Virus record (IMG/VR): IMGVR_UViG_3300045988_122854
Length of the DNA: 64,000 nt
Source of the DNA: a virus
Strand: one strand, 5' to 3'
The position numbers and the translations under genes were made by a program. How positions within the stretch are numbered: position 1 is the stretch's first letter; the number at the start of each line of letters is the position of its first letter. The notes beneath the pieces are model-generated. The model was not told the origin of the DNA. It saw nothing but the letters and a program-made list of their open reading frames with translations, and ran no database searches. Positions 274 through 36,599 of this stretch are shown here, piece after piece.

Positions 274-1152
274 TTAAGCCAAACCAACATTAAGCAACTG
301 GCAAAAACCTTCTAATTGATATTCTGGCTTAAAGAAATATGGAGTAATAGATTTCGCGCAATGATCTGCGCAATTGCGCCCAGAAATCTTAAAATTATTA
401 TATCCTTTTGGTAAATAAGTATTTAAAATTTCATCCATATAAATCATATCTTTATTATCAATTTCAGGAAAAATCGCTCCATTATTTTTCATAGTGGTAC
501 AATTACGCTGAGATTCATCAATCTTTTTAAATAAACTAAAATTTGCGAAAACATTATAATGAGTATAAAGACGAGGACAATCAATAGGACAACTTTCATC
601 TGCCAGAATTTCAATTCTTCCTCTTTTATCTTCTGGAATAGAATCAAGAAGTTCCCAATTTCTATTATGACGACGCGGAAGAACGATACTTTCATAATCA
701 TCAAGTGCTTTTACAAAATCATAATCTTCTTTTGCTGCTATGATGCTTTTAGTCAATTTATAATTAGGAAACTTATCTCGAAGATAACGCTCAAGAATAG
801 GAGAATTAACAATAATTTCATTAATACCATTATCAAAAAGTTTTAACATTTCATTACAGTATCTATCATAAACATCAGTTTCCTCCAAAAGCGGATTAGT
901 TAGTGTAAAACGCAAGATAATATTATTCTTTTCATAAAAATCACGCATCGCACAGAGATAATCAATATTATGTTCTGGGCGTCCATCCATAAATCCGCCA
1001 CCATTCCAAATCATATTAGGAAGACAACCATATACATATTTTACCTTGGCTTCTGGATAAAAAGCTTCTGGAGCAATTTCTTGTAATTCAAAAAGTTTAT
1101 CATATACTTCAAGCCCGTAATAAAATTCAGGGCAATTAAAATTAATATCCAT
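274..1152 (-). CDS. Hypothetical protein, last gene of the RiPP-like operon
   Basis: Intact 292-aa ORF immediately downstream of the YcaO gene, same strand, 11-nt gap. No recognisable motif. Confidence 0.55.
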   Translation of the reverse strand: MDINFNCPEFYYGLEVYDKLFELQEIAPEAFYPEAKVKYVYGCLPNMIWNGGGFMDGRPEHNIDYLCAMRDFYEKNNIILRFTLTNPLLEETDVYDRYCNEMLKLFDNGINEIIVNSPILERYLRDKFPNYKLTKSIIAAKEDYDFVKALDDYESIVLPRRHNRNWELLDSIPEDKRGRIEILADESCPIDCPRLYTHYNVFANFSLFKKIDESQRNCTTMKNNGAIFPEIDNKDMIYMDEILNTYLPKGYNNFKISGRNCADHCAKSITPYFFKPEYQLEGFCQLLNVGLA

Positions 1153-1163
1153 ATAATCTCCTA

Positions 1164-2810
1164 TTAATAATTTTTAATCATTTCTTTAAAATCTTTACTT
1201 CTAAATATATCATACATAGGCTCTAAAATACATTTTTCTACTAAGTATTTTCTATCAGTAATATGTTTAAAATCTTCATCAGTAAAAATATAATCAAATT
1301 CTTTAAAAATTTTAATCATATCTTCTTTACTATATTTTCTACTATGAACGTATGCTAATAAAGTTAAATATTTTTTATAATAAGGATAAAAACAACTAAC
1401 TGAAATATCTAAAGAAAATTCTTGATTTTCTAACAAATATCCTGTAGCATCTACATAAAGATTTTTAACGAACATCTCATTGGGTGTTAATAATACATTC
1501 TTATTGTTATAAGCCACTAATTGATCTCCATGAGTAAGCAAGCCACAGAATCTATCTACAATTTTATCAAAAGTAATATTATAATAATCAAGACAATATT
1601 TAATTACATCATATACTTTATTCTTATTTTTAAGATAGTTCTTAATAGCTAAATGTTTATTTTTAGTTATAGAAATTGCCTCTCCTGTTTCTTTAACCTC
1701 TTGGCATCTATCAAAAAAAGATTTCCACAAGCCATCAAGATTATCTACATAAATACTAATGGCAGTGATACCATCAATTAAAGACATATCAGCACAATAA
1801 ATATCAGCTCCAATATTAGTAGCAATCTTTTTATTATGCTCTAAAATTTCGTCATTGGAATAACTTTTATCAGTATAAGATAAAAATACATCTTTATTAA
1901 CAGTATCTACAAATTTCTTATTTAAAAATAAACTCTCAGGAAAAGTATTGAGATTCGTAATACAAGAACCACCATCCATAACCATATCTTCTTTATTTAA
2001 AGAATAATATGGAGATATAACTGAAGTCTTTCTTGTATCAAAAGAAAAACAATTTTGATACATTTCAGTACAAACACGTTCAACAGCAATCTCAAAAACT
2101 GGAAAAGCACCAAAATTAATAGCTACAGTGCCACTATATTTATTAATTAAAATTGCTACCATAACAGGAACATTATAAGTTCTTGACATATCAATAATAT
2201 AAAAATTATTATTATGAGACTTAATCGCACTAATAATATTTTTTAATTTTTCATCTTTAATACTATCTATATCATAAAAATAAAAATCTTTATTATCAAT
2301 ATCAATATAAAAATTACTTAAAACATAATGCTCGAAAATTTCAGATAAGCCTTGATTTAAGGCTTCATTAAAAGTATTGCCTGCTGCCATTCCCGAACTA
2401 CCATGATAACGTTGAAGAAGACGAGGATCCATATATAAAGTTTTATTAATGTTAACTCCTTTAAATGGCACTCCAAAAAATTCATTATTATAAATAGTTT
2501 TAAAATAATCCTCTAATAAACCATTATCTTTTTTATTTAAACGATCAAAAAGTTTATATAAAAGAGTATCTTTTCCCCCAAGTGCTTCTTCATAACTTAA
2601 AGGCTTTTCATTTTTAAATAAAGAATAACCATAATTTTTTTTATTTGATTCAATTTTTTCTGCACAAAGAAAAGGATTACAAAGATAGTGCATTCCATTA
2701 CAAAAACGTTCATACATTTCCGCATAACCAGAAGCTCTAGCAAATTCTTTCGTAACACCTTTACCATAAGTCTTTAATACAAAATGTCCTTTATATTCAA
2801 GGCTTAGCAC
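1164..2810 (-). CDS. YcaO-domain protein (cyclodehydratase / amide-activating ATP-dependent enzyme family)
   Basis: N-terminal KTYGKGVTKEFARASGYAEMYERF matches the YcaO signature GKGxT...A.AS..E..ER. 548 aa, GTG start at 2810 with GGAG 4 nt upstream. The in-frame upstream stretch also looks coding, so the true start is uncertain. Confidence 0.7.
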   Translation of the reverse strand: MLSLEYKGHFVLKTYGKGVTKEFARASGYAEMYERFCNGMHYLCNPFLCAEKIESNKKNYGYSLFKNEKPLSYEEALGGKDTLLYKLFDRLNKKDNGLLEDYFKTIYNNEFFGVPFKGVNINKTLYMDPRLLQRYHGSSGMAAGNTFNEALNQGLSEIFEHYVLSNFYIDIDNKDFYFYDIDSIKDEKLKNIISAIKSHNNNFYIIDMSRTYNVPVMVAILINKYSGTVAINFGAFPVFEIAVERVCTEMYQNCFSFDTRKTSVISPYYSLNKEDMVMDGGSCITNLNTFPESLFLNKKFVDTVNKDVFLSYTDKSYSNDEILEHNKKIATNIGADIYCADMSLIDGITAISIYVDNLDGLWKSFFDRCQEVKETGEAISITKNKHLAIKNYLKNKNKVYDVIKYCLDYYNITFDKIVDRFCGLLTHGDQLVAYNNKNVLLTPNEMFVKNLYVDATGYLLENQEFSLDISVSCFYPYYKKYLTLLAYVHSRKYSKEDMIKIFKEFDYIFTDEDFKHITDRKYLVEKCILEPMYDIFRSKDFKEMIKNY

Positions 2811-3007
2811 AAGACTCCAAGTAGTTGATTGTTCTTGACGTAAAGCTTCCTCAACACAAGTAAATCCGCGTCCCTCTAAAAAGTTTTTAATATTATTAAC
2901 TGTATCAATAGGACTTATTTCTTTATAATGTTGACTATAATTATTCGTATAAACACACCCTTTTCATTTATCTTATAATTATAATACATTATTTTTTATC
3001 AAAAATC

Positions 3008-3034
3008 AATTAAAACCTACTATAAAAGTAGGTT
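3008..3034. terminator. Hairpin aaaacctac-tataa-aagtaggtttt flanked by A/T runs; likely bidirectional terminator
   Basis: Perfect 9-bp inverted repeat with T-runs on both sides. Confidence 0.4.
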
Positions 3035-3041
3035 TTAATAA

Positions 3042-3584
3042 TTATTTATTTAATTTTAATAAATAATAACAATTAGGACATAAATATTTATTATCATTTG
3101 TTTTAAAAAATGGAATATTCTATCCATTAGATTTAGACTTTAAACCACACATTTCACATATTTTATTATCCTATTGTACTATTGGAATATTTACCGTAAT
3201 ATCAGGTTCAAAAATATTAGTAAGATTATTAAATATTTTTTCACTATAATTTAAAATCAAATTTTCATCATTCTAATAATCATACTAACAAATCTAATAA
3301 CTTATCCAAATACAATCTTTTAAATTAGATAGATCTATTTTCTCTATCGGTATAATTGTATTAAAGTTTATTTCATTAACTTCTTTAAAATTTATTTTTT
3401 CTTTTAAAATATACTATACCTAATAAATAATAAATCTGTCTTTCCTAATAATACCTAACTAAAAATAAATAAATAAAACCCAAAAATCATAAATACTATT
3501 CGGATCAAACCTTAATAGAAATTCTTTTAATAAAGTCCAAAAGTCAGACTCTACCTATCCAAAATGATGATCGGTAAATCTCAT
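3042..3584 (-). CDS. Hypothetical 180-aa protein with a C-terminal zinc-ribbon-like CxxC...CxxC; contains 9 in-frame TAG codons
   Basis: Frame checked codon by codon: ATG at 3582-84 overlaps the upstream stop as TAATG; TAA at 3042-44. In-frame plus-strand cta (minus TAG) at 3555, 3459, 3420, 3414, 3294, 3285, 3273, 3171, 3120. No TAA or TGA in between. Confidence 0.5.
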
Positions 3585-3784
3585 TAGCTTTCTCCTTTAT
3601 CAGATTTATTAAAACAAAAATGTAAATATTTATTTAAATCAGGAAGATTACCTAATTTTGGAGGTACATTAAATAAATAAGGTTTATCTCCTTTAGTAAA
3701 ATCTAAAAAATTATTTAGAAGAAAATAAACTTTTTCTTTATATTCTTGATAAGTTTCAATCATAAATACTTTCTCCTTTTCCAT
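3584..3784 (-). CDS. Small hypothetical protein (66 aa)
   Basis: ORF with ATG at 3782-84; overlaps the upstream gene's stop in an ATGATTGA arrangement. Confidence 0.4.
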   Translation of the reverse strand: MEKEKVFMIETYQEYKEKVYFLLNNFLDFTKGDKPYLFNVPPKLGNLPDLNKYLHFCFNKSDKGES

Positions 3785-5852
3785 CTAAATAATTTAAAAA
3801 CCATTCATAAGTAGGCACATAACACAATTCATTATTAAGATAATTTAATAATGAATAAATTTCATTTTTAATATCATCAAAATTAGTTATACATTCTCCT
3901 CTTAAAAGATTAAACTCAATTTTCTAATTTTTAATATCTTCTATAATCTGTTTATCTAAATTACATAAATTAGGAATATTATTAAAATCTTCTTTATTAT
4001 TAGATAAATTATACATAGTATATAATATATAATAAATTAAAAGAATAATCTTTTCTAAAAAATAATTATTTTCATATCCATAAAAAGAAGAATCTAAATC
4101 ACTTATTAATTTTATTTCATTAATAATTCTATAAAGATTTCGTCTTAAAGTACTTTGTTTGCGGTTTTCATCAATATTTTCCAATTTCAAAATATCAATA
4201 AAATTAGCAAAAAATACAATTATTTTATTAATATATCCTGTAATTACCATATTAGAATTAGAATGAGATAAACAATTAGGATTATCTTCTAACTAAGTTA
4301 TATAAAGACCTAAATTCTAATCTTCTAACTCATAAGATTCACCATAAATATCGCATCTATCTAAGAATATACTATCTTCTCCAAAGAAAAATTTTGAATA
4401 TTTTATATTATTCTTATTAAGAAAATCTCTTTTAAGAATTAAATTAATCTTTTCAACTGATTTATCAGCATTAACTATTTTAAATACCCCAAAATTTTCT
4501 TTGCTATATTTTATTGAATTATATAAAATTTCTAAAACATTATCATTTGAAAATAAATCATCAGAATCCCAAAATAACACATATTTATTAAAAGAATATT
4601 CTAGTCCTAAATTGCGAGTTAGACCAGGCCCTTTTCGTTTTAAATTCTTAAAAAAGAAACAAGGAAAATTTGCTTCATCAAATACTTCAATAAGTTTTTT
4701 ATCATAGAAAGAATGGTCACTAATAAAATATACACAACAATCTTTTATAATTGTTTGGGTAGATAAATTATTATACAAATTAATAATTTGCTAATCATTC
4801 ATATTATAATAAGGTATTATAATATCCATTTTTCCATCAATAAAACGAGTAAAACATTTTTTTAAATAATAAGTATTATATCTAAATTCAATTGGGCATC
4901 TATTTTCTTTAAATAGCTAATAATTTTCTAAAAAATTTTCTTTATCATTAACTAATTTTAAATAAAAATCATAATCTCTAAAATAAGCATCTTCCATTGG
5001 AACTATAAATTCTGATTTTGTATCATAATATTTGTGCCAAATCCAAGAAGCTTCAGACATAGTCCCATCGCAATATCTACAAATATTTTTAGGTTTAAAA
5101 ATGAAATTATGTAAATCATCTAAACTATTTATATCCTCTAACTGCAAATAATCGCTTTCGTCTTCTGGGATATTTACATTATATTTCTTTCTATAAATAT
5201 CCAAGTGTGCAGAAAATGGACATATATAAATTTTATAATTTTTTAAAGTAAAACAAGGTAACTAATGCGGACATTTATGAAAATATACTTCATTTATATC
5301 AGTAGTTCCTGCTTCATTTACAAGCTATTGTCGCATAAATAATCTTGAATTATGATTAAAACCTAAACCATGACTGTCTAGATACTCTATCGCTTTATGA
5401 TCGGTATATTTTCCATAAGTAGTAACATCAAATATTACTCCCATATCTTTATATTCTTTCTCATGTTTAAAAGCATCTTGTAAATGACACCCATTGCTTA
5501 ATATTTTAATTTCCACCTTATCTTTTGGGAAAACTTCTCTAGCAATCTAACATATTTCAAATAATTTTGGATGTAAAGTAGGTTCTCCACCTAAAATCAT
5601 AAAAAGTTTTATATTTGGAATTTTTTTATAAGCAAAAGTAATCTGATTGCGGAAATCATCTAAATCAATATACCAAGGTTCTGCTAAAGGGGAAAAATGA
5701 TTACATCCTGCGCAGTTAAGATTACAATGATCTACAATATGCATTTCTAAACTAACCCCATCATAGACCGATTTCCATACTGGATTAGTATAAGGAGGAA
5801 TCCCTTGATAATTTTTAGTTCTATCTATTTCCATATTTATTCTCCAAAACAT
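3756..5852 (-). CDS. Radical-SAM (N-terminal) / family-2 glycosyltransferase (C-terminal) fusion, or two translationally fused genes, read through at least 8 in-frame TAG codons
   Basis: N-terminus has CNLNCAGC (CxxxCxxC) and GGEP. From about 4836 downward: MDIIIPYYN ... KGPGLTRNLG ... FWDSDD (GT-A fold, DxD motif). One continuous frame from ATG 5850-52 to TGA 3756-58. The only internal stops are TAG at 5547, 5325, 5262, 4917, 4791, 4317, 4293, 3924. Confidence 0.6.
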
Positions 5853-6396
5853 TTATAATATTTCTATTATAATTAACTAGTTCTTTTATTTGGTTATCTC
5901 TTTCCTACAAAAAACATCCCGTGCAAATTTCATTTATATCATTTAAATCACTATGAAAAAATTCACAACGATGTATTTTTCTATTTAACTATTCACAATT
6001 TTTATCACACTTTAAAATCTATTCTTCTTTATCGTAAATAATTGGATGTTCTTCTTCAAATCGTAAAGTTAAATATAATTTAAATTCTAATTGTCCCTAA
6101 CTTGAATATAACATTGTTCTATAAAAAATAGATTTTACTGTAGATTCAAATGTAAATTTTTGTTTTTGACTAAAAATTAACTCAATAATTTTTATATCTT
6201 TATATTCTAAATCTTTTAATTGACTATATAGATAATTTAATGAAGAATATTCTATATCATTTGAATTATTTACAATTTTGCAAAAAGTAATTTCTTTTGG
6301 AAAATTTAATCCAAAAACAATATCATTACATTCACGCTCGTCAAACTTTACTGTTCTTAGTAAAGTTTGACGAGCATTATATAAATTAATTAACAT
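5813..6396 (-). CDS. Cys-rich hypothetical protein (about 194 aa) with one in-frame TAG
   Basis: ORF 6097..6396 continues through TAG at 6097-99 into a CDKNCE...HRCEFFH...CTGCF segment. TAA at 5813. Overlaps the radical-SAM gene start by about 40 nt in another frame. Confidence 0.4.
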
Positions 6397-6704
6397 TAAT
6401 GATTACGCCAATAGCCAGGAATTTTATATCCTAAAAAATGACGATAAATTAAATAATCTTCACTCATATTAGGACCTTCGTCTTCATTACAATTATCACA
6501 ATCGCAATTATCATTATCATTAATGCTAGAATTAACAATTTTTTTAATTAAATTATCAATAAGAGAATTAACTTCTTCATTTTCTCCATTATTTTCAATC
6601 CAATTTAAATAAATTACATATAATAAATCTTTATAATCTCCAACATTAGAAAGATCAAAAGTATCATCTAAATGCTGAATTTGTTTTTTCATTTCTTCAA
6701 TCAT
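6396..6704 (-). CDS. Small acidic hypothetical protein (102 aa)
   Basis: ORF; TAATG overlap with the next gene; ATGATTGA overlap with the upstream radical-SAM gene. Confidence 0.5.
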   Translation of the reverse strand: MIEEMKKQIQHLDDTFDLSNVGDYKDLLYVIYLNWIENNGENEEVNSLIDNLIKKIVNSSINDNDNCDCDNCNEDEGPNMSEDYLIYRHFLGYKIPGYWRNH

Positions 6705-8100
6705 TATAATACCCCAACTGACGGCATAAAGTAAGCCATTTTTCTTTGTCTACTTCACTCTTAAAATAATTTTTTTCAACTGCAATTTTAGTTAATCCCA
6801 ACTCGCAATAGGTCTTTGCCAAGAAAGTTAAATGTGTTTTATGTAATTTACAAACACTTTCCCCAGGAACAAATAAATCACCTGTTGCTTCATATTGAGC
6901 GCCTAAACATCCTTTTAAACAATAAGGATCAAAAGGACAAGTCGGACAGGCAATATTCATATGTGTATTATTCATTTTAATTACACTATATACAGTAGGA
7001 TTAATCGCAGTAATACCAACTACTTTATCATCTTTTACATCAAGACGTCCACCAAGGAATTGAGGGTAAGAAGTTCTATGACAAGGCGCAAATTCAAAAC
7101 TTGCTACATAAAAACAAGTCTGGTGTGAAATCGCACAAGTGTATTCTTCACTATCCCAAGTAGAAGTTAATCCAAGAGGATCATAATTTCCAAGACAAGG
7201 TAAAGAACCTTCTTCTCCATCTCCTAAGAAAATATGTCTTGCCAATTTATCTACAGACTCACCATTTTTATGGAATCTTACTTCAAACATATGAGTTAAA
7301 AATTCAAGATAATGATCTAATTTTTCATCAGTCCATTCATCATTACGGACTTCCAAATACATAGGTTGAAAATCATGAATGTCTTCACCAGCAAGATTAT
7401 ACTTTTCATATTGTTCGTCCCACCAATCAAAATTCTTAATAGCACTCTCAATATTACTTGGAGAAATCATAGGATGAATACCACAAGGATTTCTTTGAAG
7501 AAACTCAAGAATTTTAGTATAATAGCTATCATCTTTATCGCGCTCGCGCACACTATTATAAGGTCCATCTACCGAACAAGAAAGACTTATCTCCATATTA
7601 ATAGTTTTAAATCTAGTTAAAAGCTCTTCCATTCTTTCAGCTTTTTTATCATCAGTAGCAAAACTAAAATTATTTGGCATTACGATACGAGGATGAATAT
7701 TAAAAAGATTAGGATGTTCGTCATACAATTCTTTATAATATTTAAACATTAATTCAAATATTTCAAATCCAATATCATCATAAAATAAATCTCCAGCAAA
7801 AAGTTCCATTTCATGAAATAAAACTTTTCTTTCTTTGAAAATATAATTTAAAATAATATCAGTATTATGAATTAAAGTTTTATTGTTAGCCCGCTTTTCC
7901 ATGGGGTAAAGTTTATCTCCATACCGCGCGACATAACAATATTCACATTGTTGATTGCACTCAGGTCTTATAATAAGCTCAAAAGACTCCCCATTAATCC
8001 AGTATCCTTCCTCTTGATGGTCCCTATTAAAAATATAATTATCTACAAATTTTTCAAAGTATTTATTATTATCTAACTGACAACCTTCACTAATATTCAT
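6697..8100 (-). CDS. Radical-SAM / SPASM-domain enzyme (peptide-maturase type)
   Basis: CNQQCEYC (CxxxCxxC) near the N-terminus. C-terminal CPTCPFDPYCLKGC matches SPASM CxxCx5Cx3C, with additional Cys. 467 aa. TGA stop. Confidence 0.8.
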   Translation of the reverse strand: MNISEGCQLDNNKYFEKFVDNYIFNRDHQEEGYWINGESFELIIRPECNQQCEYCYVARYGDKLYPMEKRANNKTLIHNTDIILNYIFKERKVLFHEMELFAGDLFYDDIGFEIFELMFKYYKELYDEHPNLFNIHPRIVMPNNFSFATDDKKAERMEELLTRFKTINMEISLSCSVDGPYNSVRERDKDDSYYTKILEFLQRNPCGIHPMISPSNIESAIKNFDWWDEQYEKYNLAGEDIHDFQPMYLEVRNDEWTDEKLDHYLEFLTHMFEVRFHKNGESVDKLARHIFLGDGEEGSLPCLGNYDPLGLTSTWDSEEYTCAISHQTCFYVASFEFAPCHRTSYPQFLGGRLDVKDDKVVGITAINPTVYSVIKMNNTHMNIACPTCPFDPYCLKGCLGAQYEATGDLFVPGESVCKLHKTHLTFLAKTYCELGLTKIAVEKNYFKSEVDKEKWLTLCRQLGYYND

Positions 8101-9599
8101 TAATTACTTTCTCCTCTATATTCATTCATATTTTCAGTATTTTGGAACCATTCTTCTTCAGGTTTAAGTAAATTATTTTCTCTATCTACATACATAAATA
8201 GTGCTGATTGAGTTCTTAAAGTGCCTACACTTCTTAACAACGCACTACCAGAAGAAATAAAATTATTATAAGTACAAGCATCAATTTTTGTTGCAATTAA
8301 TGCCAATCTTAATAATTTATCAGGATTATATTTGTAAATAGAATTTAATTGATTACATTCATTTAGCATTTGTAAAGTATTTACAGTTGCTTGGAACATA
8401 AATGGGAAGGAATGTGTTTTATACATATCATATTTATATATAACTTTATTAATATCTTCTTCGCTATCAGTTAAAAGATTAACACAATCAGTTTTAGTGC
8501 GACGGGTATCTTTTCTTAATTGTGCGCCAATAGTTCCATCATCTTTAACATTATTGCCATCAAGATCAAACATAAAATTCTGGCAAGACATCATAGTACC
8601 ATCATAAAGTAATTTTAATTCATTAAAATTACCGCTACAGAAATTATTTCTAGAAGCTACAGTAATTGCTTCTTGATTTCCTTCCATAACCAATTTCATC
8701 AATTCTTTTGACGTAATAGGACGATCTTCTCCAGTAAATCCATGTAAATCTGAAAATACTTCTTCATATAAATGACGATAACCAATAATGATACCAACTG
8801 GAAGATGCGGGTCATGGAAATCACTTACATCAATATTAACAAGACGTTGTAAAAAAGACTCATATTCAATGCGTTCATCAACTGATCCATCTCTTGGATT
8901 CTCAGGACAAATTGATACACTACTATTTACTTCGACTCTTTGATTAAGATTAATATCAGCGAGTTCAAAACCAAAATTATCCAAATCTTTATAATAATCA
9001 TGAACTTTTTGAATTGTATCAAGTTCATGAATTAAAGCTCCAGAAAGAACACCATGTAATTGAATAGATACATTTACATTATGAAATTTAATTTTATTTA
9101 ATTCTTTAATTACAGTTGAAGCAGTCTCAAAGATTTTTTCATTATTAGCATTTCTAATATTATTGGTTGAGTAAGTGCCATCGTAAGAAAATTGAACTTC
9201 TAAAGCAAGTTCATTATTTGCTAATTCATCAACCTTTTTAATAAAATTAACAGTTCTTTCAGGAAAATCCATCCCATTGGTAGAATAATCAATATGATTA
9301 ATATTCGGGAAATAATTAAACCAATCTTCCAAATGATCGGTAAGAAGATGCAAGGTCAATGTAGGTTCTTGACCCCATAAAGTAAAACATTCTATTTTAT
9401 ATCTGTTAAGATTTAAACGCTTAAAAATACCTTTTACATTATTTAAAAAAGTACCATCGTTTAAAGCTTTAATAGTTTCATGTTGTAAATTTGCAGAGCA
9501 ATTATTTAAAGTATTTTCAATAAGACAATATTTACAATGTAAATTACATCCACATGAAGACACTAAAGATACTGCTCTAATATCCATTTCTTTAAACAT
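8100..9599 (-). CDS. Radical-SAM enzyme (second maturase; possible twitch/SPASM-like C-terminal Cys)
   Basis: CGCNLHCKYC motif and GQEP. 499 aa. Stop and start abut the flanking genes. Confidence 0.75.
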   Translation of the reverse strand: MFKEMDIRAVSLVSSCGCNLHCKYCLIENTLNNCSANLQHETIKALNDGTFLNNVKGIFKRLNLNRYKIECFTLWGQEPTLTLHLLTDHLEDWFNYFPNINHIDYSTNGMDFPERTVNFIKKVDELANNELALEVQFSYDGTYSTNNIRNANNEKIFETASTVIKELNKIKFHNVNVSIQLHGVLSGALIHELDTIQKVHDYYKDLDNFGFELADINLNQRVEVNSSVSICPENPRDGSVDERIEYESFLQRLVNIDVSDFHDPHLPVGIIIGYRHLYEEVFSDLHGFTGEDRPITSKELMKLVMEGNQEAITVASRNNFCSGNFNELKLLYDGTMMSCQNFMFDLDGNNVKDDGTIGAQLRKDTRRTKTDCVNLLTDSEEDINKVIYKYDMYKTHSFPFMFQATVNTLQMLNECNQLNSIYKYNPDKLLRLALIATKIDACTYNNFISSGSALLRSVGTLRTQSALFMYVDRENNLLKPEEEWFQNTENMNEYRGESN

Positions 9600-9640
9600 T
9601 TATATTATAAAACTCCTTTTTCTCAAAAGAATTAAGAACG

Positions 9641-10378
9641 CTATCTACCAGCGCCACTACGGTTTGTGCTATTAGAAGTATAAGCTCCTCTATTAGAACC
9701 TCTATAAGCACTTCTATAACCGTTATTACTACCATAATTAGAAGAACGATTACTATTATTACTACTATAATTAGAGCTTCTTACGCCATTATTACTTGAA
9801 TAATTAGCAGTATAATAGGTATAATTACTTGAATAATTTGAACTTCTATGACCATTATTACTTGAATAGTCTGAAGAGCGTTGAGCATTATTACTTGAAT
9901 AGTCTGAAGAGCGCTGAGTATTATTGCTTGTATAATAAGAACTATTATAACTATTATTACTTGAATAGTCTGAAGAACGCTGAGTATTATTGCTTGTATA
10001 ATAAGAACTATTATAACTATTATTACTTGTATAATCTGCACCACGATAACTATTATTACTTGTATAATTCGCTCCGTTATAGGCACAAATGCCATTTATT
10101 GTATCAAGTTTACTTCTAATTTCCTCTAAGGGGACTCGTTTCATAAGCTCACTAGCTCTTGGAGCGGTAAAATTAGAAAAAGTAGCCTAAGTTCCTACAT
10201 AAGAAACATTTCTTAAATTTTCAATTTCATTTTTTAAAGTAGTAATATCACTTTGTCTCGCATGACGCTCCCCATTTAAGGGAGCGGTCGTGCGAGTTTG
10301 AGAAAAACGAGTCTAAGCAGTATTTAAAGTATCATATAGAGCGCGAACATCACTCCATGAAATACGACTACCAGCCAT
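9641..10378 (-). CDS. Candidate RiPP precursor peptide: about 100-aa leader plus a Tyr/Ser/Asn-rich tandem-repeat core; 2 in-frame TAG in the leader
   Basis: ATG at 10376-78 preceded by AAGGAGAG at 7 nt. In-frame through TAG twice, into ...MKRVPLEEIRSKLDTINGICAYNG, then repeats of YTSNNSY / DYSSNN / RSSNYSSNN. The DNA shows 36- and 57-nt tandem repeats at 9780-10100. Lies directly upstream of two radical-SAM genes on the same strand. Confidence 0.55.
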
Positions 10379-10391
10379 TTATATTCTCTCC

Positions 10392-10808
10392 TTAATTTAC
10401 AGCCTCGGGAGTATAAGTTATATTAAGTTCTGCTACAGTATTATAACTATTAGCATATGACTTATCTCCAATATCATTATTATATTCAAAGACCATTTCA
10501 GCGATATTGGCAACATTTTTTTCAAAAACTTTTCTATAATCATTAGAAATAGTTAAATAATATACACCAATTTTAGCAACCTTTGAACGATCAAAATTTT
10601 CAATAAGTTGAGCAGAAACTTTAGGTAAACTTAAAGTTTCAACATCATAGCCTTCTGAATATTCACGAAGTCTAAAAGCATATTTAACTCCATTAGTTTC
10701 TCCATTAATACTTGTAGAAAAAACAACGGGACCAGTTATAATACTTTCAGTCTCCTTGCCTTCATTGTCAATAACAACTACCTTAAAGGTATTATTTAAT
10801 TCAGCCAT
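10392..10808 (-). CDS. Hypothetical protein (138 aa)
   Basis: ORF; its stop overlaps the precursor RBS. Confidence 0.5.
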   Translation of the reverse strand: MAELNNTFKVVVIDNEGKETESIITGPVVFSTSINGETNGVKYAFRLREYSEGYDVETLSLPKVSAQLIENFDRSKVAKIGVYYLTISNDYRKVFEKNVANIAEMVFEYNNDIGDKSYANSYNTVAELNITYTPEAVN

Positions 10809-10947
10809 TATTAAAATTCCTCCTAATAAAATAAATAATTAGGATATTATATATCCTATTTTTATTAAAAATTTATTTTATTTTATTTTTTAGTTTCGGT
10901 TAAACTAACTATTTATCATTTTTACTAAATAAATAATAACAAAAAAA

Positions 10948-10979
10948 AAGAGTAATGTCAAATGACATTACTCTTTAAA
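10948..10979. terminator. Hairpin agagtaatgtca-aa-tgacattactct in an A/T context
   Basis: 12-bp perfect inverted repeat just downstream of gene 10980..11285. Confidence 0.45.
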
Positions 10980-11297: not shown

Positions 11298-12728
11298 TTA
11301 ACTAAAATTATGTATAAAGTCTTTTAAAGACTTAAAATTATCAACTTTTTCTTCACCAGCATCTCTAAAACACCAAGGACATAAATACATATCAGTCCCT
11401 TTGTGATAGTGAATATCTTGCGTATAATATAAATTATTACAACACTCACATCGTTTACAATAAGTGTCCGCACAACTATCGCAAACTAATTCATTCTCAT
11501 CGCCTACGGAATTTGCTTCATCAATAATTATACGAGAACCACAACAAGAGCAATAACCATAATTATCGTCCTCGTCTACTCCATAACTAAATTCACAATC
11601 TCCACATCGCATATATTCCCCATTTTCAATCATAGTCTTACCGCACTGTAAGCAAGGGACATCCCCACCAATAGACCAATGAGGAAGATCACCCTCTCGT
11701 GGATAATAATATAATTTTAAACTATAAATAGGTAAATAACAAGAAGAATAAAGCAAATCATTATAGTGAAGAGTATAATAACCCGCATCATCAACAATCT
11801 CACTAATAGGATACAAGCGAGATAAAATGAGAATCCACGTTTCCGCTAATCCAATAGTCTCTTCACCAAAAGAAGTAGCACTCATTCTATTAGGGATACT
11901 ATTAATGCCCCCATCTACCCATTCGCGCAACTGAAAAGTCTTATCAAAAGTATTGATAATATCTTTAATCTTAATTAAAGCATTAGTTGTCATAAAAGGA
12001 TACTGGCGCCCGGCCATCAGACCGCGTCGCTTATCTTCCATATATAAAAGCATACGCCACTTCTTAGAATTCCAAAGAACATCTTCAGGGAAATGCGGAA
12101 GCTTCTGATTGTCCGCTCCGCGCAAATAGCAAATAAAAGTGCTTTTATCTACCATGTAAGATAAATTTCCTGCTCTATATTCGCCGTCAAGCGCATGACA
12201 AGAGCGCCAATTGTAAGTATTTTCACTCACACTTAAAAAATCCAAAGGATGAACTGAGAAACATAACGTTCCTTCAATCTTATCCTCTTGGATAATGCGA
12301 CTTGCGTAATTCTGAATATCTTCCAAAGAACGCGGATTCTCTTCAAAATACTTAAAAGCCTTAACTAATTTCATTCCTCTTGGAATCTTTTTATCCTTAT
12401 AAAAATAAGTGTCAATAACTGTATTATCAAAAAATCCTTCTTTGTTTGTAAAAATAAAATCTTTTAAGTCTTCATTATTATAAGTATAATTAATTGTTTC
12501 AAGAAACTCTTCAAGACGATGCTCTTTAGTTTTATCATCTAAGGAAAAAGATACCCTTTCCGGCCATTCATAAATTAAATGGCCATGGAAAAATTTAATT
12601 AAGTCTTTTTTGGCTTCGAGGAATCTTTCGAATAGTTCTTCTGTTTTTGGATTACTGATTCCTTGGGAGTAACTGATGACTTTGTTGAACTGTTCTCTAA
12701 TGCTTTCGATGTCGAAGTCATATGACAT
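11298..12728 (-). CDS. Large hypothetical protein with a C-terminal cluster of zinc-ribbon motifs (paralog of 15237..16841)
   Basis: Start taken at ATG 12726-28 with GGAGGA upstream. C-terminus CLQCGK...CGDCE...CSCCGS...CDSCADTYCKRCECC...CPWC. Shares a WNSK(K/R)WR(M/E)L and ...GEYR.G... core with 15237..16841. Confidence 0.6.
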   Translation of the reverse strand: MSYDFDIESIREQFNKVISYSQGISNPKTEELFERFLEAKKDLIKFFHGHLIYEWPERVSFSLDDKTKEHRLEEFLETINYTYNNEDLKDFIFTNKEGFFDNTVIDTYFYKDKKIPRGMKLVKAFKYFEENPRSLEDIQNYASRIIQEDKIEGTLCFSVHPLDFLSVSENTYNWRSCHALDGEYRAGNLSYMVDKSTFICYLRGADNQKLPHFPEDVLWNSKKWRMLLYMEDKRRGLMAGRQYPFMTTNALIKIKDIINTFDKTFQLREWVDGGINSIPNRMSATSFGEETIGLAETWILILSRLYPISEIVDDAGYYTLHYNDLLYSSCYLPIYSLKLYYYPREGDLPHWSIGGDVPCLQCGKTMIENGEYMRCGDCEFSYGVDEDDNYGYCSCCGSRIIIDEANSVGDENELVCDSCADTYCKRCECCNNLYYTQDIHYHKGTDMYLCPWCFRDAGEEKVDNFKSLKDFIHNFS

Positions 12729-13705
12729 TTGACTAATCCTCCAATACAATCTTTACAATACTCACTGTGTGGGTTCGCAGGGTCAATTTCAAATGCCTCT
12801 TCACACTCCGCACACCATTCAACATTACTGGGAATACAATCAGGGCAATAAAAACATGTATGTCCATCTAGTCCCTTTACTGGAAATGTTTCATATTCAC
12901 TAAATAACTGACCGCATCCTTTACAATGAACGTAGAATCCATCGCCATCAGTTGGAAAATTCTTACAAATATTATCGAACCAAATACTATGATAATCACG
13001 ATAATATTCAAAATCAGGAATATCTTTCTCTTGGAGCATGCGGATTACCTTATTAATTGTGTCAAAAAGAGCACCCGCATTTAATGTTTCAATGCGATTA
13101 TGTTCGTTTTTATAACCTACTGAAAGATTTACACCACAAATTTTCCATTCGGGACATAAAATACTAATATCGCTAAACGTGCCAAAATCCTCTACAAATC
13201 CAAAAGACTCAATGTAGTCCATAAACTTAGGATTGTAAAGGTCATAAAACACACAATCATTTGTGCCTTGTCTATCTAATTGAATAATATATTTCAAATC
13301 AGGAAACGGACAATCAAAATACTGTAATACTAATGCTTCGGCGCCTAATCCACCAATTTCTTCATCAGTGGTAAAAATAATAGAAGGGCGCAAAGACGTA
13401 TTCCTCAAAATATGAAGAATTGCATATACTCCCGCTCTATCATCCGCACCAAGACCATCGGGCGACCAAAGCACATTTTTTCTTGTGTCATAATATAAAT
13501 CTTTGACCGGTTTCTCAAACACAGTATCAAGATGAGCTACTAAGGCAATCGGAATATCGCCGACCGCACAAACATACTCTTTAGTAATAACTACTTCGGT
13601 ATATTTAGATTTCAATACATCGGCAACATATTCTCTTAACTCTTCTTGTGTTGAGCGAACCAGATATTCAAATAACCAAAGTTCATTAGTTTTAAAACCT
13701 CTCAC
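12599..13705 (-). CDS. M20/M28/M42-family metallopeptidase-like protein with C-terminal zinc ribbons
   Basis: HLDTVF and GADDRAG motifs typical of dinuclear zinc peptidases. C-terminal HCKGCG...CFYCPDC...CAECEE...CKDC. Its 3' end overlaps the next gene by about 130 nt in another frame. Confidence 0.5.
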   Translation of the reverse strand: MRGFKTNELWLFEYLVRSTQEELREYVADVLKSKYTEVVITKEYVCAVGDIPIALVAHLDTVFEKPVKDLYYDTRKNVLWSPDGLGADDRAGVYAILHILRNTSLRPSIIFTTDEEIGGLGAEALVLQYFDCPFPDLKYIIQLDRQGTNDCVFYDLYNPKFMDYIESFGFVEDFGTFSDISILCPEWKICGVNLSVGYKNEHNRIETLNAGALFDTINKVIRMLQEKDIPDFEYYRDYHSIWFDNICKNFPTDGDGFYVHCKGCGQLFSEYETFPVKGLDGHTCFYCPDCIPSNVEWCAECEEAFEIDPANPHSEYCKDCIGGLVKCHMTSTSKALENSSTKSSVTPKESVIQKQKNYSKDSSKPKKT

Positions 13706-13715: not shown

Positions 13716-13766
13716 CCTATCTTTTATCTTATATTTATATTATAACATTATTTTTTTTATTTGTCA
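13716..13766 (-). promoter_or_regulatory. AT-rich TTGACA-N17-TATAAT promoter (minus strand)
   Basis: Plus-strand tgtcaa and ttataa with a 17-nt spacer. Confidence 0.5.
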
Positions 13767-13801
13767 ATTGAGTCCTCTTCCGCCTCGGAGATAGGATTAT
13801 T

Positions 13802-14557
13802 CTACTTACTCTCTTGAACTGCTTTATCTATAACACGAGAGAATATAAACGCGGTTTCACAATAATGGCAAGTGCCTTGACGCTGACAGCGCTGACCGCA
13901 ATTGATGCGGTTGGGGCCAAAATCTTCGGGAATTCCACGGTTATCCGCATTATAATTTAGGTTCGTTAATAAAAGGTTTAGATTACCTTGCCAATGACCG
14001 CTTTGATAAATATCCAAAAGCACGGCTTCCTTAGAGAGCGCGGGCTCGTCAAATTCTAATGTCGAGACATATGTTCCGTAATAATCTACATCTTCCGGTC
14101 GGACGTAGGAACCGCATATTCCATTTTCTCTTGGAAGGTTATCATCATAGCATTTATTCGCAATCATACGAATTGGAACTTTTGCTTGCTGATTTAATTG
14201 TCTCAGATCAAACGTAAGCGGTGCCCCGATGAAAAGTTCACTAACTCCAAGATCAAGGAGAACGCGGACTTCCGCCCATGTAGTAGCAGGATAAGCGAAA
14301 TAATACTTTACATCAATATTACATCCATTGCGGGTAAGCATATCTTCAAATGCTACAATAAGATCGACTTTATCTTTAAATGAATCGATCTCTTCCCAGT
14401 TTACTTCTTCACCTTTGCGGATTCGGATAATATATCGTTTATCAGGGAATTTCTAAATCATATCATACATAATGTTTATATCATTATAATTAACCATAAG
14501 CTCATCAGCCTTCTCGCGGACAACATCAGGTTGACGCACGGAAACACAATATTTCAA
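13802..14557 (-). CDS. Hypothetical protein (about 251 aa) with one in-frame TAG
   Basis: ORF 13802..14341 extends in frame through TAG at 14453-55 to a TTG at 14555-57 with AAGGAG 9 nt upstream. TGA just upstream. Confidence 0.4.
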
Positions 14558-14687
14558 ATTATATCACTCCTTTATAATATAATTATAACAAAAAACTCCA
14601 ATTTTGTCAAGAAAATTCTAAACGGCTTTTTACTTTTGGACTTTCGGTATATGCGGCCAGCACCGGTCGGAGTAGATGGCAAGAAAA

Positions 14688-14728
14688 AATGAGCTGAAAA
14701 AACTTTCAGCTCATTTAATCATTTAGTT
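14688..14728. terminator. Hairpin atgagctgaaa-aaac-tttcagctcat
   Basis: 11-bp inverted repeat immediately 3' of gene 14730..15146. Confidence 0.5.
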
Positions 14729-14729
14729 C

Positions 14730-15146
14730 TCAGTCCTCGAAAGCGACCTTACGATAAGCCACTTTCTTTGAAGCCTTACCGCCATCAGCGCCCGGAACGG
14801 AAACCTCAGTCTTCTCCGCGCGGTTCTCGCTCACAAGAGTGCGGAGACGATAGCTGGCACGCTGCGCGGAAACGCTCTCATCGCCGAGAGCCTTGACGAT
14901 CTCAGGGATGGTCATAAACTCATCGTCATAAAGAACATTATAAATCTGCTCAGTCAGCTCATCGCCCTCAGCACGCTTGGCGGCTGCACGCTCCTTAGCC
15001 TTGGCAGTCTTCTTATCAAGCAACTCAATCTCATGCTCGCAAAATGCGATCACGTCATTGGGATCATACTTGATCTCGCCAGTCTTCATAGCCTCGATAA
15101 TTGCGGTCAGATAGTCGCGCTTAGATACTTTAATTTCATTAGTCAT
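14730..15146 (-). CDS. Hypothetical protein, member of a 3-copy paralog family (with 36212..36589 and 38831..39211); GC-rich
   Basis: Shared blocks: KRD(Y/R)..A(I/L)(I/L), (V/M)(I/V)AF(C/I)EHEIELL.KK and ...SAQRASYRLRTLV versus ...SNQRVSALLRQMI. Confidence 0.55.
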   Translation of the reverse strand: MTNEIKVSKRDYLTAIIEAMKTGEIKYDPNDVIAFCEHEIELLDKKTAKAKERAAAKRAEGDELTEQIYNVLYDDEFMTIPEIVKALGDESVSAQRASYRLRTLVSENRAEKTEVSVPGADGGKASKKVAYRKVAFED

Positions 15147-15236
15147 AATTTTTACCTTAACCTTTCATAAATAACAATTTTATTTTTAGGAAGTATTTCT
15201 TCCTTTACCTTACATAAATATTATATATTATTTTTT

Positions 15237-19335: not shown

Positions 19336-19416
19336 ATAAAAAAAGTCCTTTCTTAACTTTCTATAAATATTATATAATAATATTTATAAAAAATCAAAAA
19401 AGGACTTTTAATTTAT

Positions 19417-23620: not shown

Positions 23621-24417
23621 ATTGATTACCCCTTTACAATCTTAATAAACATCAATGCCTTCAACCGCATTTTTGCAATTCCAAAGAATTTCAAAAGCCT
23701 TTTTGATATTTTCAGTGTTAACTAACTTGGCAGAAGAGAGATCTATTGCATCAAAAGCTTCTACGGCTTTATCTTCTTCAAGGTCTTCATAATGAACAGT
23801 CTTAGCAAGATAAGTATCACAATGTCGGAACGCAATCTTATTAACGAAAGAACAAAAACTATACTTATGAGTAATATTTTCATAAACGACAAATTTATCG
23901 TGATAGCCATCATCAAAAACAATTACACGAATAATATTATCCATAATAGCAATATTCTCCATAATTATCATTCCCTTTCTTTCATTAACATTTGTTGCTT
24001 ATTCCTTTACAGACCTAATAAAACTTTCAAGAATTGAAATGTTCAAAGTAAGTTCGTCAAGCTCATCACTATCAATGACACCTTGCCAATCAAGCATATC
24101 AACATAGGTGTCAATTGTTTCAAGAGCCTTAACCGCATCTTCCTTAGTAAAGGGCTTTTCTACCAACTTCATAATTATCATTCCCTTTCTTAACTTTCTA
24201 TATATATTATATATTATTTTTTATAAAAAATCAATAAAACTCTTTTTTGGAGGTATCATACATCAAGAGCCACAGCGTATATAATATAGCCTATTCAAGT
24301 TTGTTAGCAGAACTATCATACCCACTTATAATCTAACCTTATTGAATAGCACCCTTGGGCGGTATGGACTGAAACTTTATCCTATTGGGGAAGAGAATGC
24401 CCTTCCAGAGTTTTATA

Positions 24418-32771: not shown

Positions 32772-32930
32772 TTAATTTTAAATGAGAGGGACACGAGAGA
32801 CATGAGGGACATGAGAGACAAAAGCTTTAGTAAGTAGAGATTATGTCCCTATGTCCCTCATGTCCCTAACGGGACAAGAGAGACATGAGAGACATAATGT
32901 AATAAGTTATGTCCCTGACGTCCTTCGGAC
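32640..32930. repeat. Array of about 20 copies of the heptamer GGGACAT / ATGTCCC (variants GAGACAT, GGGACAC, GGGACGT) in both orientations; candidate origin, iteron or centromere-like site
   Basis: Direct reading: gggacatcagggacattggggac...atgtccctagggacacgagagacattagggacgtcagagacgtcaagggacattggggacat, followed after the stop by the inverted orientation (atgtccctatgtccctcatgtcccta). Confidence 0.6.
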
Positions 32931-33991: not shown

Positions 33992-34172
33992 AGATCTATA
34001 TTGGTTGATTCGCTTCTGGATAACAATTAAGCTGATGGGTTCGGAATCGGAAGACGTGGAATAAAATTAATATAATTAATTAAGATTGTTGAAAATCGTG
34101 GTTGTGCCCTGCCGATCGGTTTAACCAATCACCAACCACATTTCCTCGTCTCCGTCTCCGATCTCCGAACAT

Positions 34173-34212: not shown

Positions 34213-34276
34213 ATTAAGCAATTCTTGGTGAAATTGTCAATTCTTAGGATGAAAAATATCTCACCCGACACATTGT

Positions 34277-36589: not shown

Positions 36590-36599
36590 AGTATCAATT

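Follow-up and report, generated by a model that had tools for sequence, protein, structure and literature searches.

The window analysed here is a 64,000-nt stretch of viral DNA (IMG/VR record IMGVR_UViG_3300045988_122854) from a gut phage in which TAG has been recoded from stop to glutamine. When TAG is read as Gln, positions 274-10808 hold 11 co-directional genes (g0-g9 plus g6b) on the minus strand, on which all features of this cassette given below lie. Four ORFs carry in-frame TAGs (nine in 3042-3584, eight in 3756-5852, five in 5815-6396 and three in 9632-10378) and have neither an in-frame TAA nor TGA. Moreover, Gln is over-represented in the homologue columns aligned to TAG. The proposal of the first-pass annotation that TAG is a sense codon, to be translated as Gln, therefore holds. 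That annotation also described ten co-directional, coupled genes. The common direction and the overlaps stand, with TAATG at the g2/g3, g4/g5 and g6b/g7 junctions and ATGATTGA at g3/g4 and g6/g6b. The count, however, is 11: the unit begins one gene earlier, with g0 (10392-10808), and takes in g6b (3584-3763), the latter encoding a 59-aa protein that is coupled to its neighbours via ATGATTGA and TAATG overlaps.

Nor do these genes form a single operon, as had been supposed. A hairpin terminator with a 13-bp stem is found 3′ of g7 (3009-3039), followed at 2980-3009 by a copy of a 30-nt phage promoter-like motif directly upstream of the YcaO gene, thus splitting off YcaO and g9. Five copies of this motif occur in the window, where none would be expected by chance. 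At the other end, the terminator hairpin of the upstream gene is overlapped by a sigma-70-like promoter (TTGACA-17-TATTAT with TG; 10933-10976), which is likely to be the start of a g0-g7 transcription unit. The GC content of the cassette is 23-28%, compared with 33-39% outside. In-frame TAGs are common to the cassette and the terminase, portal and capsid region, and in other phages the cassette lies between tail-fibre and endolysin genes; late expression of the cassette is therefore plausible.

Two adjacent genes encode radical-SAM (rSAM) enzymes. The product of g2 (8100-9599) is a 499-aa, twitch-type enzyme with a CX3CX2C motif at C18/C22/C25 and a twitch-like auxiliary-cluster motif, C321-x17-C339, plus C442; three Cys outside CX3CX2C are invariant. 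The product of g3 (6697-8100) is a 467-aa rSAM enzyme, probably of the SPASM type, in which the rSAM cluster (C48/C52/C55) is accompanied by seven more invariant Cys (C322, C340, C385-x2-C388-x5-C394-x3-C398 and C417). All seven SPASM Cys are invariant among 20 family members, at a TIGR04085 score of 18.9 bits against a cut-off of 27. CX3CX2C is invariant in the g2, g3 and g6 families, of which g6 passes the PF04055 cut-off (32.1 versus 29.5 bits) whilst g2 (28.4) and g3 (16.5) fall below it. Thus, the motifs by which g2, g3 and g6 had been called rSAM enzymes, and g3 a SPASM protein (CxxCx5Cx3C), are present. The specific HMM matches of g2 and g3 are all weak and are only to peptide maturases (PapB, SCIFF, Nif11-type, QhpD, HxsB and YhhB), which argues against the QueE/NrdG-type identity that had been raised as a counter-case. 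Nor do the same matches point to RimO or MiaB. In the PDB, neither sequence searches with g2, g3 and g9 nor a profile search with g3 gave a significant match. Among 1.84 billion representative proteins, the enzyme family forms a large, sharply delimited group of 553 clusters (50% identity), not one of which bears a functional name.

Upstream of this pair, g1 (9632-10378) encodes a 248-aa substrate-like protein with three in-frame TAGs read as Gln. Its end, previously placed at 9641, is the TAA at 9632; the final TAG is read through and aligns to V or S in relatives. Residues 1 to ~100 form a conserved helical N-domain and the remainder consists of about 11 units (11 residues each) of Y-[ST]-S-N-N-x-x-R-S-S, then a conserved tail, NRSGAGRxRS. 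Tandem Repeats Finder (TRF) recovers the array at 9716-10069 with a 33-nt (11-codon) period and 10.7 copies, confirming that the tandem-repeat precursor gene is real. Mean identity is 95% in the conserved N-domain versus 72% in the variable core (98-148 aa), as is typical of RiPP precursors. Across lineages, g1-type proteins are 170-364 aa long with cores of 70-300 aa, whose composition is conserved (13-20% aromatic and 17-32% Ser), although several lineages use Phe or Trp as the aromatic. In nine of ten lineages, the residue found most often at +2 from the aromatic is Ser (39-84%). The L005 clade differs, with Gly or Ala at that position and Ser one residue further on (+3), so aromatic-x-Ser spacing is not universal. 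AlphaFold2 models the helical N-domain of g1 at a pLDDT of 60-80 and leaves the core disordered at about 25. The N-domain is, moreover, a folded domain of ~100 aa, and in one member, P0097, it is found C-terminal to the repeats, which counts against a leader role. The first-pass annotation had suggested an NHLP/proteusin-type leader, but g1 matches nothing in Pfam, NCBIfam or PHROG, NHLP and Nif11 leader models included, and a fold search was likewise empty. The preceding gene, g0, encodes a 138-aa beta-rich protein with no family match and 40% identity to the L005 clade; in other lineages a small protein with a g0-like N-terminal pattern is found directly upstream of the repeat gene.

The comparison of related cassettes took in some 20 distinct loci, drawn from metagenomic phages and a single prophage. 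None lacks the g2-g3 pair, and in nearly all of them an aromatic/Ser/Asn-rich substrate-like protein adjoins it. A g1-type protein lies directly upstream of the pair in L003-L013, L017/22, L018 (twice), L021/25/26, L027 and L030, and more divergent aromatic/Ser/Thr/Asn-rich proteins adjoin it in L016, L019, L028 and L029. The pair in L020/23/24 has no recognisable substrate, which counts against g1 being the substrate. Homologues of the repeat protein (27-38% identity, and more distant ones) are always found beside the same two rSAM genes, so the co-occurrence on which the first-pass reading depended is borne out. These data support a putative dedicated substrate-enzyme module of repeat protein and rSAM enzymes. 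We hold, with moderate confidence, that the cassette is expressed late and matures a ribosomally made protein in a RiPP-like manner, the rSAM pair most likely modifying the repeat protein chemically. Counting against this, the analysis found neither an RRE/PqqD-like domain nor a leader peptidase or an exporter.

The position after g3 is occupied by a small, non-homologous gene in nearly all lineages, here g4 (6396-6704), which encodes a 102-aa acidic helical protein. It is followed by g5 (5815-6396; 193 aa, five TAG codons, Cys-rich C-terminus), a semi-conserved accessory gene that L017, L021/25/26 and L027 share. The product of g6 (3756-5852, eight TAGs, true start likely the second ATG at 5834) fuses an rSAM domain, with C43/C47/C50 plus four further conserved Cys, to a GT2 glycosyltransferase and a helical C-terminal domain. 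The GT2 domain (residues ~340-490) scores 38.1 bits against PF00535 (cut-off 23.3) and its DSDD motif has invariant D429, D431 and D432; these Pfam matches and the motif agree with the rSAM/GT2 fusion with DxD reported previously. The last gene of the unit, g7 (3042-3584; 180 aa, nine TAG codons, C-terminal zinc-ribbon-like CxxC...CxxC), is restricted to the clade of the window phage. Outside the cassette, the gene at 12599-13705 had been called dinuclear-zinc peptidase-like; it does match M20/M28, but weakly (E 3e-4, below the curated cut-off). Its synteny with the cassette, seen in the window, L009 and L021/25/26, would suit a scheme in which g1 is a multi-copy precursor sacrificed to make a small molecule or cofactor from Tyr, on the lines of mycofactocin or PQQ. 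There, the rSAM/SPASM enzyme would modify Tyr, U32 or the M20/M28-like peptidase would excise the units and GT2 would glycosylate the phenol. The set of rSAM/SPASM, GT2, peptidase-like protein, small helper and Tyr-rich peptide does parallel MftC, MftF, MftE, MftB and MftA, and many identical units per precursor would provide stoichiometric amplification. However, neither MftC/PqqE nor the MftB/PqqD RRE is among the NCBIfam and Pfam matches of g2, g3, g4 and g0, Phe or Trp replaces Tyr in several lineages, minimal cassettes lack both GT2 and U32, and the fast divergence of the cassette is unexpected in a cofactor pathway. We therefore consider this scheme improbable.

Beyond the internal terminator, g8 (1164-2948, 594 codons) encodes the YcaO-domain protein already recognised (PF02624, the ATP-binding YcaO domain, 101.2 bits, cut-off 25.7). 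At the position homologous to the start codon of relatives (GTG or ATG), g8 reads ACG; its first canonical start in frame, a GTG, comes at 2810. Azoline formation, the function previously suggested, is not favoured, as E. coli YcaO rather than the SagD type is closest, the azoline-type model TIGR03604 gives 36 bits (cut-off 219), and neither a TOMM partner (E1-like/Ocin-ThiF) nor an FMN dehydrogenase is among the cassette proteins. The last gene, g9 (274-1152), which the first-pass annotation left unidentified, encodes a 292-aa TIM-barrel protein, probably with the peptidase-U32 fold, that scores 19.7 bits against PF01136, below the cut-off of 22.4. Three of its Cys (C188, C192 and C218) are invariant, and other lineages have one to three paralogues. 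YcaO occurs in three lineages, at different positions, and rSAM-GT2 in six. Both, like the U32 paralogues, come and go among loci; YcaO and GT2 are thus accessory and lineage-specific rather than the core parts they had been taken for.

These accessory enzymes lend themselves to a different explanation, namely that they modify the translation apparatus or nucleic acids to suit the recoded code, by YcaO/RimO-like modification of ribosomal protein S12 or U32-type RNA hydroxylation for example, and that g1 is an unrelated low-complexity protein. The nearest relative of g8, E. coli YcaO, is an S12 methylthiotransferase accessory factor. Among U32 members, UbiU/UbiV function in ubiquinone synthesis and TrhP acts on tRNA. 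The characterised member RlhA is an rRNA hydroxylase that depends on prephenate and Fe-S (PMC5727448). Moreover, tRNA arrays flank the cassette in three lineages and a DAHP synthase adjoins it in L017. Against this, cassettes are also present in loci that have few in-frame TAGs or none (L012/13, L016, L017 and L019), YcaO and U32 are dispensable whilst the substrate-like protein and g2-g3 are constant, and the weak matches of g2 and g3 are to peptide maturases, not RimO/MiaB. We regard this explanation as very improbable.

The cassette is a sharp island of divergence and evolves as one unit. Between L001 and L005, nucleotide identity drops from ~0.93 to 0.57-0.75 exactly over g0-g9 and then returns to 0.99, i.e. 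about 93-99% in the flanks versus 57-75% inside. Its carriers are phages of gut Clostridia, and it was not seen in any cultured phage. One relative is integrated as a provirus in a bacterial contig of 429 kb, and the earlier description of a lytic-type phage is thus not established. A provirus in the assembled genome of Clostridiales Family XIII bacterium PM5-7 carries a homologous cassette with almost no in-frame TAG. Since the carriers are phages of gut Clostridia and the cassette diverges far faster than its flanks, the data point to a role in competition, host range or adhesion.

Divergence of this kind is typical of host-range loci, and would fit a reading in which g1, acted upon by the same enzymes, is not a released peptide but a virion- or tail-fibre-associated adhesive or glycan-binding ‘whisker’. 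Its Tyr/Ser/Asn low-complexity region would then be cross-linked, hydroxylated and glycosylated, and so become sticky and protease-resistant in the gut. Tail-fibre-like or tropism-determinant genes are found beside the cassette in five lineages: the cassette directly follows tail-fibre-like genes and precedes endolysins in L028 and L019, directly follows a tail-fibre-like gene in L029, comes after very large DUF6273 and glycine-rich proteins in L007, and has an Mtd_N tropism-determinant-like gene nearby in L012. In all, endolysin genes adjoin it in two to three of these five. Such closeness to tail-fibre genes suits a structural role no less than a secreted product. The length of g1-type proteins (170-364 aa), with a folded N-domain at either end, and the lack of a leader protease and exporter are also in keeping with a structural role, as is the Tyr/Asn/Gly/Arg-rich composition, which we take to resemble that of adhesive proteins. 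In the window phage, however, the cassette adjoins a tRNA array some 45 kb from the terminase/portal/capsid module, and no similarity of the g1 N-domain to any structural protein was detected. We consider such a whisker possible but doubtful.

A more speculative extension is that g1 is a phage biomaterial whose Tyr/Phe-Ser-Asn repeats might all be radical-cross-linked, hydroxylated independently of O2 (U32-type, prephenate-dependent) and glycosylated. It might conceivably serve as a protease-proof adhesive or glycan-binding appendage, or as a lysis-released polymer, and its rapid diversification might tentatively be ascribed to an arms race over host or mucus binding. If true, g1 would be the first known case of a phage structural protein that matures through radical-SAM enzymes, and U32-type enzymes would have their first protein substrate.

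Returning to the RiPP-like maturation system that we favour, none of the cassette enzymes scores above the cut-off for a named peptide-maturase family, the triceptide, TOMM, NHLP, mycofactocin and Hxs models included. The type of chemistry is therefore one that we infer, as are the substrate role of g1, the tailoring roles and the fate of the product. What the sequences show directly is the gene content, the motifs, the constant neighbourhood of substrate-like gene and enzyme pair, and the joint evolution of the cassette. Given its three in-frame TAGs, g1 would be translated only after TAG is decoded as Gln. Its helical N-domain of ~100 residues would act as a recognition, leader-like element, and g2 (one auxiliary cluster) and g3 (two auxiliary clusters) would use radicals derived from SAM to act on the repeated aromatic-x-Ser/Thr(-Asn-Asn) units, most likely by forming a side-chain cross-link, of cyclophane or ether type, in each of them. 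The chain would thereby become rigid, poly-cyclic and resistant to proteases. Lineage-specific tailoring might follow, with sugar addition and possibly remodelling by the rSAM-GT2 fusion, hydroxylation or trimming by the U32-fold Fe-S-type proteins, and ATP-driven activation of backbone amides by the E. coli-type YcaO. As no exporter is encoded, the product would be set free by lysis or borne on the particle.

An enzyme family tied to a single type of repeat substrate is a direct lead to uncharacterised radical chemistry and a RiPP-like class. Moreover, its partners (an rSAM-GT2 fusion, U32-fold proteins and an E. coli-type YcaO) have not been seen together before, and the natural substrate of E. 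coli-type YcaO is a long-standing question. The PM5-7 provirus cassette may offer an experimental handle, if the strain is cultured.

On present comparisons, this enzyme-substrate system appears to fit no described family. A precedent for phage-borne RiPPs is the sublancin locus of the Bacillus SPbeta prophage, where a ribosomal peptide encoded by the prophage (SunA) is modified by a GT2-family enzyme (SunS). Unlike the cassette, it has no rSAM enzyme and no repeats, but a single short, Cys-containing core, an exporter and an immunity gene. Mycofactocin (MftA-F) likewise clusters a Tyr-containing ribosomal peptide with an rSAM/SPASM enzyme, small helper, peptidase and GT2. At the sequence level, however, the two are unrelated. 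Its peptide has one C-terminal Val-Tyr, whereas the candidate substrate of the cassette has many repeats with Phe/Trp variants, and the cassette is hypervariable and phage-borne. E. coli YcaO (PDB 4q84) is the best match to g8 (E 5e-22, residues 15-299) and both stand alone without a TOMM partner; g8, however, resides in a phage cassette and scores 101 bits against the equivalog cut-off of 700. As in the U32 family (Mk0906; RlhA, TrhP, UbiU/UbiV), g9 has conserved Cys suited to an Fe-S centre, although only three are invariant, and the several U32 paralogues of some cassettes may act together as UbiU/UbiV do. To our knowledge, U32 members act on RNA or quinones, and a protein substrate is not firmly established for the family. 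The triceptide enzymes and the predicted Hxs system (HxsA with rSAM HxsB/HxsC) share with the cassette tandem short units, in which an aromatic or His is followed at +2 by a small polar residue, and a SPASM enzyme with all seven auxiliary-cluster Cys, as in g3; Hxs also has two adjacent rSAM enzymes, like g2-g3. The triceptide-type membership proposed initially is nevertheless not sustained. Cassette scores are 12-22 bits against cut-offs of 340-520, with 17.8 bits for YhhB NF041707 (cut-off 445) and 12.2 for AmcB NF041718 (425), over the CX3CX2C stretch only, and 17.6 bits for g3 with HxsB TIGR03978 (370). NCBIfam gave no HxsC match for g2, and a PDB profile search reached ChlB at E 0.017 across 25 residues. 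The cassette further differs in its phage context and in its recognition element, which is not an RRE but a folded domain of about 100 aa, attached to cores of 70-300 aa. Lastly, U32, rSAM-GT2 and E. coli-type YcaO are partners of the cassette and not of triceptide or Hxs systems.

The window lies on a 194-kb contig of a gut metagenome from Peru, and under the standard bacterial code its 2.8–6.1 kb stretch appears broken into fragments. When frames were cut only at TAA and TGA, long minus-strand ORFs with in-frame TAG were recovered at 9632–10378 (3 in-frame TAG codons), 5815–6396 (5), 3756–5852 (8) and 3042–3584 (9), each with no other stop. Gln is enriched in the homologue columns opposite TAG, and for g2 and g3 it is the most frequent residue there. 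TAG is also used in the terminase-, portal- and capsid-like genes at 53–64 kb of the window. Reassignment of UAG to Gln is known in gut phages (PMC10879173). Read in this way, the minus strand of 274–10808 carries 11 genes: g0 (138 aa), the repeat protein g1 (248 aa), the radical SAM (rSAM) enzyme g2 (499 aa), the rSAM/SPASM enzyme g3 (467 aa), g4 (102 aa), g5 (193 aa), the rSAM-GT2 fusion g6 (~692–698 aa), g6b (59 aa), g7 (180 aa), the YcaO protein g8 (594 codons) and g9 (292 aa). The gene overlaps described by the first-pass annotation are borne out, with TAATG at g2/g3, g4/g5 and g6b/g7 and ATGATTGA at g3/g4 and g6/g6b. However, the single operon it proposed resolves into two transcription units. 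5′ of g0, a promoter (TTGACA-17-TATTAT) overlaps a terminator hairpin, whilst g7 is followed by a 13-bp hairpin terminator and then by a 30-nt promoter-like motif, TTGATTTTTTATAAAAAATAATATATAATA, found five times in the window (2980–3009, 15219–15248, 19368–19397, 24205–24234 and 29168–29197, all minus strand) against none expected by chance. Since one copy drives the YcaO-U32 pair (g8 and g9), these two genes may fall into another temporal class than g0–g7. For the small proteins g0, g4, g6b and g7 no sequence homology was found across lineages, and position alone is conserved.

Phages whose flanking proteins are 93–98% identical share only 40–78% identity in their cassette proteins. In 500-nt windows, nucleotide identity between the window phage (L001) and a second locus (L005) is ~0.93 to the right of position ~10,900, 0.57–0.75 over g0–g8, 0.82 in g9 and 0.99 at the tRNA genes. 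Moreover, GC content is 23–28% in the cassette compared with 33–39% outside it. The extent of the module, g0 through g9, is therefore set by the island boundaries, which also indicate allele replacement or accelerated evolution, both of which are seen at conflict or host-range loci.

Adjoining tRNA-Trp(CCA), at 126–196 on the minus strand, is a tRNA-like gene (42.7 bits for the Rfam tRNA model) whose abnormal anticodon loop, AUUUAA, has 6 nt, or 8 nt with the closing pair open; ARAGORN assigned it no anticodon, and a similar unassignable tRNA was called in L005 and L009. Directly downstream of the cassette, L001 (17905–21248), L009 (15020–20649) and L010 (13869–15008) carry arrays of 7–14 tRNA genes, tRNA-Asn among them, and no suppressor tRNA with a CUA anticodon was found in these three stretches. 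Elsewhere in the window, several blocks of an iteron-like array (GGGACA/GAGACA every 9 nt) at 32630–32900 coincide with a change in GC-skew sign (about 30–33 kb) and thus mark a candidate replication origin. The 18 kb from 34000 to 52000 have a GC content of 41–45%, compared with about 35% elsewhere, and only short ORFs, mostly < 260 aa under either code.

At the DNA level a 33-nt unit is repeated 10.7 times in tandem within g1 and encodes x-Y-[ST]-S-N-N-x-x-R-S-S. Searches of Pfam, NCBIfam and other family models gave no family match. About 100 clusters of g1 relatives were found, none with functional annotation, and those on long contigs sit mostly on phage-sized ones of about 130–200 kb. 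An AlphaFold2 model of P0007, a family member 89% identical to the window g1, has three main helices in residues 8–95 (pLDDT 60–80) and a disordered remainder (~25); Foldseek matched it in the PDB to generic helical bundles only (E > 1), with no fold match. Within the window clade the N-terminal domain has a mean identity of 95% and the core, of 98–148 residues, one of 72%. In distant members (27–38% identity) the repeat sequences differ and the composition is unchanged, and in the circularly permuted member P0097 the repeats come first. Across lineages g1-type cores contain 13–20% aromatic residues and 17–32% Ser, with Ser the commonest residue at +2 from the aromatic in nine of ten groups. 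Two other candidate features were rejected. N-x-S/T sequons number 8–17 per 100 aa in most lineages, with values of 2.9 in the family members P0093/94 and 1.7 in L016, and are not a conserved feature of the repeats. Likewise, the junction cysteine C98 is not a universal site of cleavage or self-processing, being absent in L018, L027 and L030 and close to the C-terminus in P0097.

Every neighbourhood examined shows a repeat gene followed by g2-like and g3-like genes. In a jackhmmer map of 30 loci, about 20 of them non-redundant, the g2-g3 pair is invariant, nearly all loci have a g1-type protein immediately upstream of it, and a small non-homologous gene lies downstream of g3. The accessories vary: U32 paralogues number 0–3, the rSAM-GT2 fusion occurs in six lineages and g5 in five. 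More divergent substrates (L028, L029, L019 and L016) are rich in Y/T/S/N/K, Y/T/H, N/Q/G/Y or F/S/G, and loci of the L020 type have the enzyme pair and no recognisable substrate. L018 and L021/25/26 have two cassettes each; in L018 (84–13491) and in L021/25/26 these are tandem substrate-g2-g3(-U32) modules whose core sequence differs between copies. Beyond the cassette, 11298–12749 and 15237–16841 encode paralogous ~500-aa proteins that match no family and have several CxxC zinc-ribbon motifs towards the C-terminus; these two, an M20/M28-like protein (12599–13705) and the protein at 13757–14557 are also syntenic with the cassette in L009 and L021/25/26.

Matches of g2 and g3 to family models are weak. 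Pfam Radical_SAM scores 28 bits for g2 and 16.5 bits for g3, both under the cut-off, and NCBIfam matches reach 12–22 bits against cut-offs of 340–520; these comprise peptide maturases (PapB, SCIFF, Nif11-type, QhpD, HxsB, YhhB, CbpB and FibroRumin) and the generic twitch-domain rSAM model and MoaA. Profile searches of the PDB with g3 and g9 returned nothing significant, nor did single-sequence searches with g2, g3 or g9. In the family alignments g2 retains the rSAM triad and three conserved cysteines (C321-x17-C339 and C442) in a twitch-like arrangement, whilst g3 retains the triad and exactly seven SPASM cysteines, CxxCx5Cx3C among them. What we infer most strongly from these sequences is that g1 is the probable substrate of the g2-g3 pair, because their adjacency is invariant over very large sequence distances, because a conserved recognition domain is joined to a variable but composition-constrained core, and because SPASM and twitch auxiliary clusters are typical of peptide-acting enzymes. 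Also in favour of g1 as substrate, the rSAM proteins resemble no rSAM enzyme of nucleotide or cofactor metabolism beyond generic matches, at the MoaA/NrdG level for the g6 domain. By analogy, the likeliest chemistry would be a cross-link between side chains in each aromatic-x-Ser/Thr unit, since the lineages share an aromatic and a following small residue and known SPASM enzymes perform such cross-linking on repeat precursors. The cassette genes require TAG suppression and no exporter is encoded; both points are consistent with expression late in infection and release by lysis.

The main rival leaves this enzymology unchanged, but under it g1 would be part of the virion or associated with fibres. 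In its favour, the cassette is flanked by tail-fibre-like genes and endolysins in L028 and L019, comes after a tail-fibre-like gene in L029 and after giant fibre-like proteins in L007, and has an Mtd_N-like gene nearby in L012. Two further alternatives are less likely: a cofactor-like product, and an unrelated function in which the enzymes modify the translation apparatus.

Around g1 as a substrate, the remaining enzymes may add further steps. In g6 (Pfam Radical_SAM 32 bits, GT2 38 bits; best PDB match of the rSAM domain, 7wzv), the rSAM triad, four further cysteines and D429/D431/D432 are invariant, and the GT2 domain would plausibly glycosylate the chain, which is rich in Ser, Asn or Tyr. 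The YcaO protein g8 (1164–2948; Pfam YcaO 101 bits) is nearest to E. coli YcaO (PDB 4q84, E 5e-22; NCBIfam YcaO_for_S12, 101 bits vs a 700-bit cut-off) and distant from the SagD type (36 bits vs 219); it would add ATP-dependent amide activation. YcaO is present in three lineages (the window clade, L009 and L027) at differing positions. At the homologous start g8 has ACG, where L003 has GTG and L005 ATG. This sequence is identical in contigs of two independent assemblies, so a sequencing frameshift was rejected; the ACG implies that initiation is non-canonical, that translation begins at the GTG at 2810 and the protein lacks 46 N-terminal residues, or that the gene is decaying.

The U32-fold protein g9 matches Pfam Peptidase_U32 weakly (19.7 bits), yields a confident TIM-barrel AlphaFold2 model (pLDDT 88.9) and has C188, C192 and C218 invariant in 28 homologues. 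In an Oscillospiraceae MAG (L014/L015, 1915–10933) a bacterial homologue is the final gene of an operon with four transglutaminase-core and two unknown proteins, which is a protein-modification context. In the provirus of Clostridiales Family XIII bacterium PM5-7 (L017), a DAHP synthase gene (14115–14972; PF00793, E 2e-72) lies between cassette U32 paralogues and terminase genes. Prephenate is a product of the shikimate pathway, and a link from this DAHP synthase to prephenate supply for U32-type enzymes is possible. The hydroxylase RlhA, a characterised U32 member, depends on prephenate and iron (PMC5727448); on that precedent, with the DAHP synthase suggestive, the U32 proteins could hydroxylate, or they could be peptidases.

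In a set of 1.84 billion representative proteins the g3 family forms 553 clusters at 50% identity, 263 of them with E < 1e-30; at 90% identity it has 234 clusters, with only generic names attached (‘AslB-like’, ‘SPASM’). Its longest contig (429 kb) is that of PM5-7, where the cassette lies inside a 114-kb predicted provirus beside terminase and portal genes and the DAHP synthase. MAG labels point to Clostridia hosts. Megablast of the region and tblastn of g3 against 50,697 GenBank phage records gave no match, the cassette occurring in none of them; nor did it turn up in literature searches on phage rSAM/YcaO/RiPP systems, U32 proteins in RiPP clusters, phage triceptides or rSAM genes near tail fibres.

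In HMM tests for triceptide, Hxs, mycofactocin, PQQ, NHLP and TOMM membership, the cassette fell into none of these classes. What the first-pass annotation had observed is real but needs correction. Its RiPP-like reading is supported in part: adjacency and the conserved N-domain with variable core support g1 as dedicated substrate of the rSAM pair, whereas the triceptide, azoline and proteusin assignments find no support. Compared with these known systems, the cassette probably represents a variant of rSAM/SPASM maturation, acting on a peptide or protein, that is restricted to phages, has unusual partners and had not been described before.
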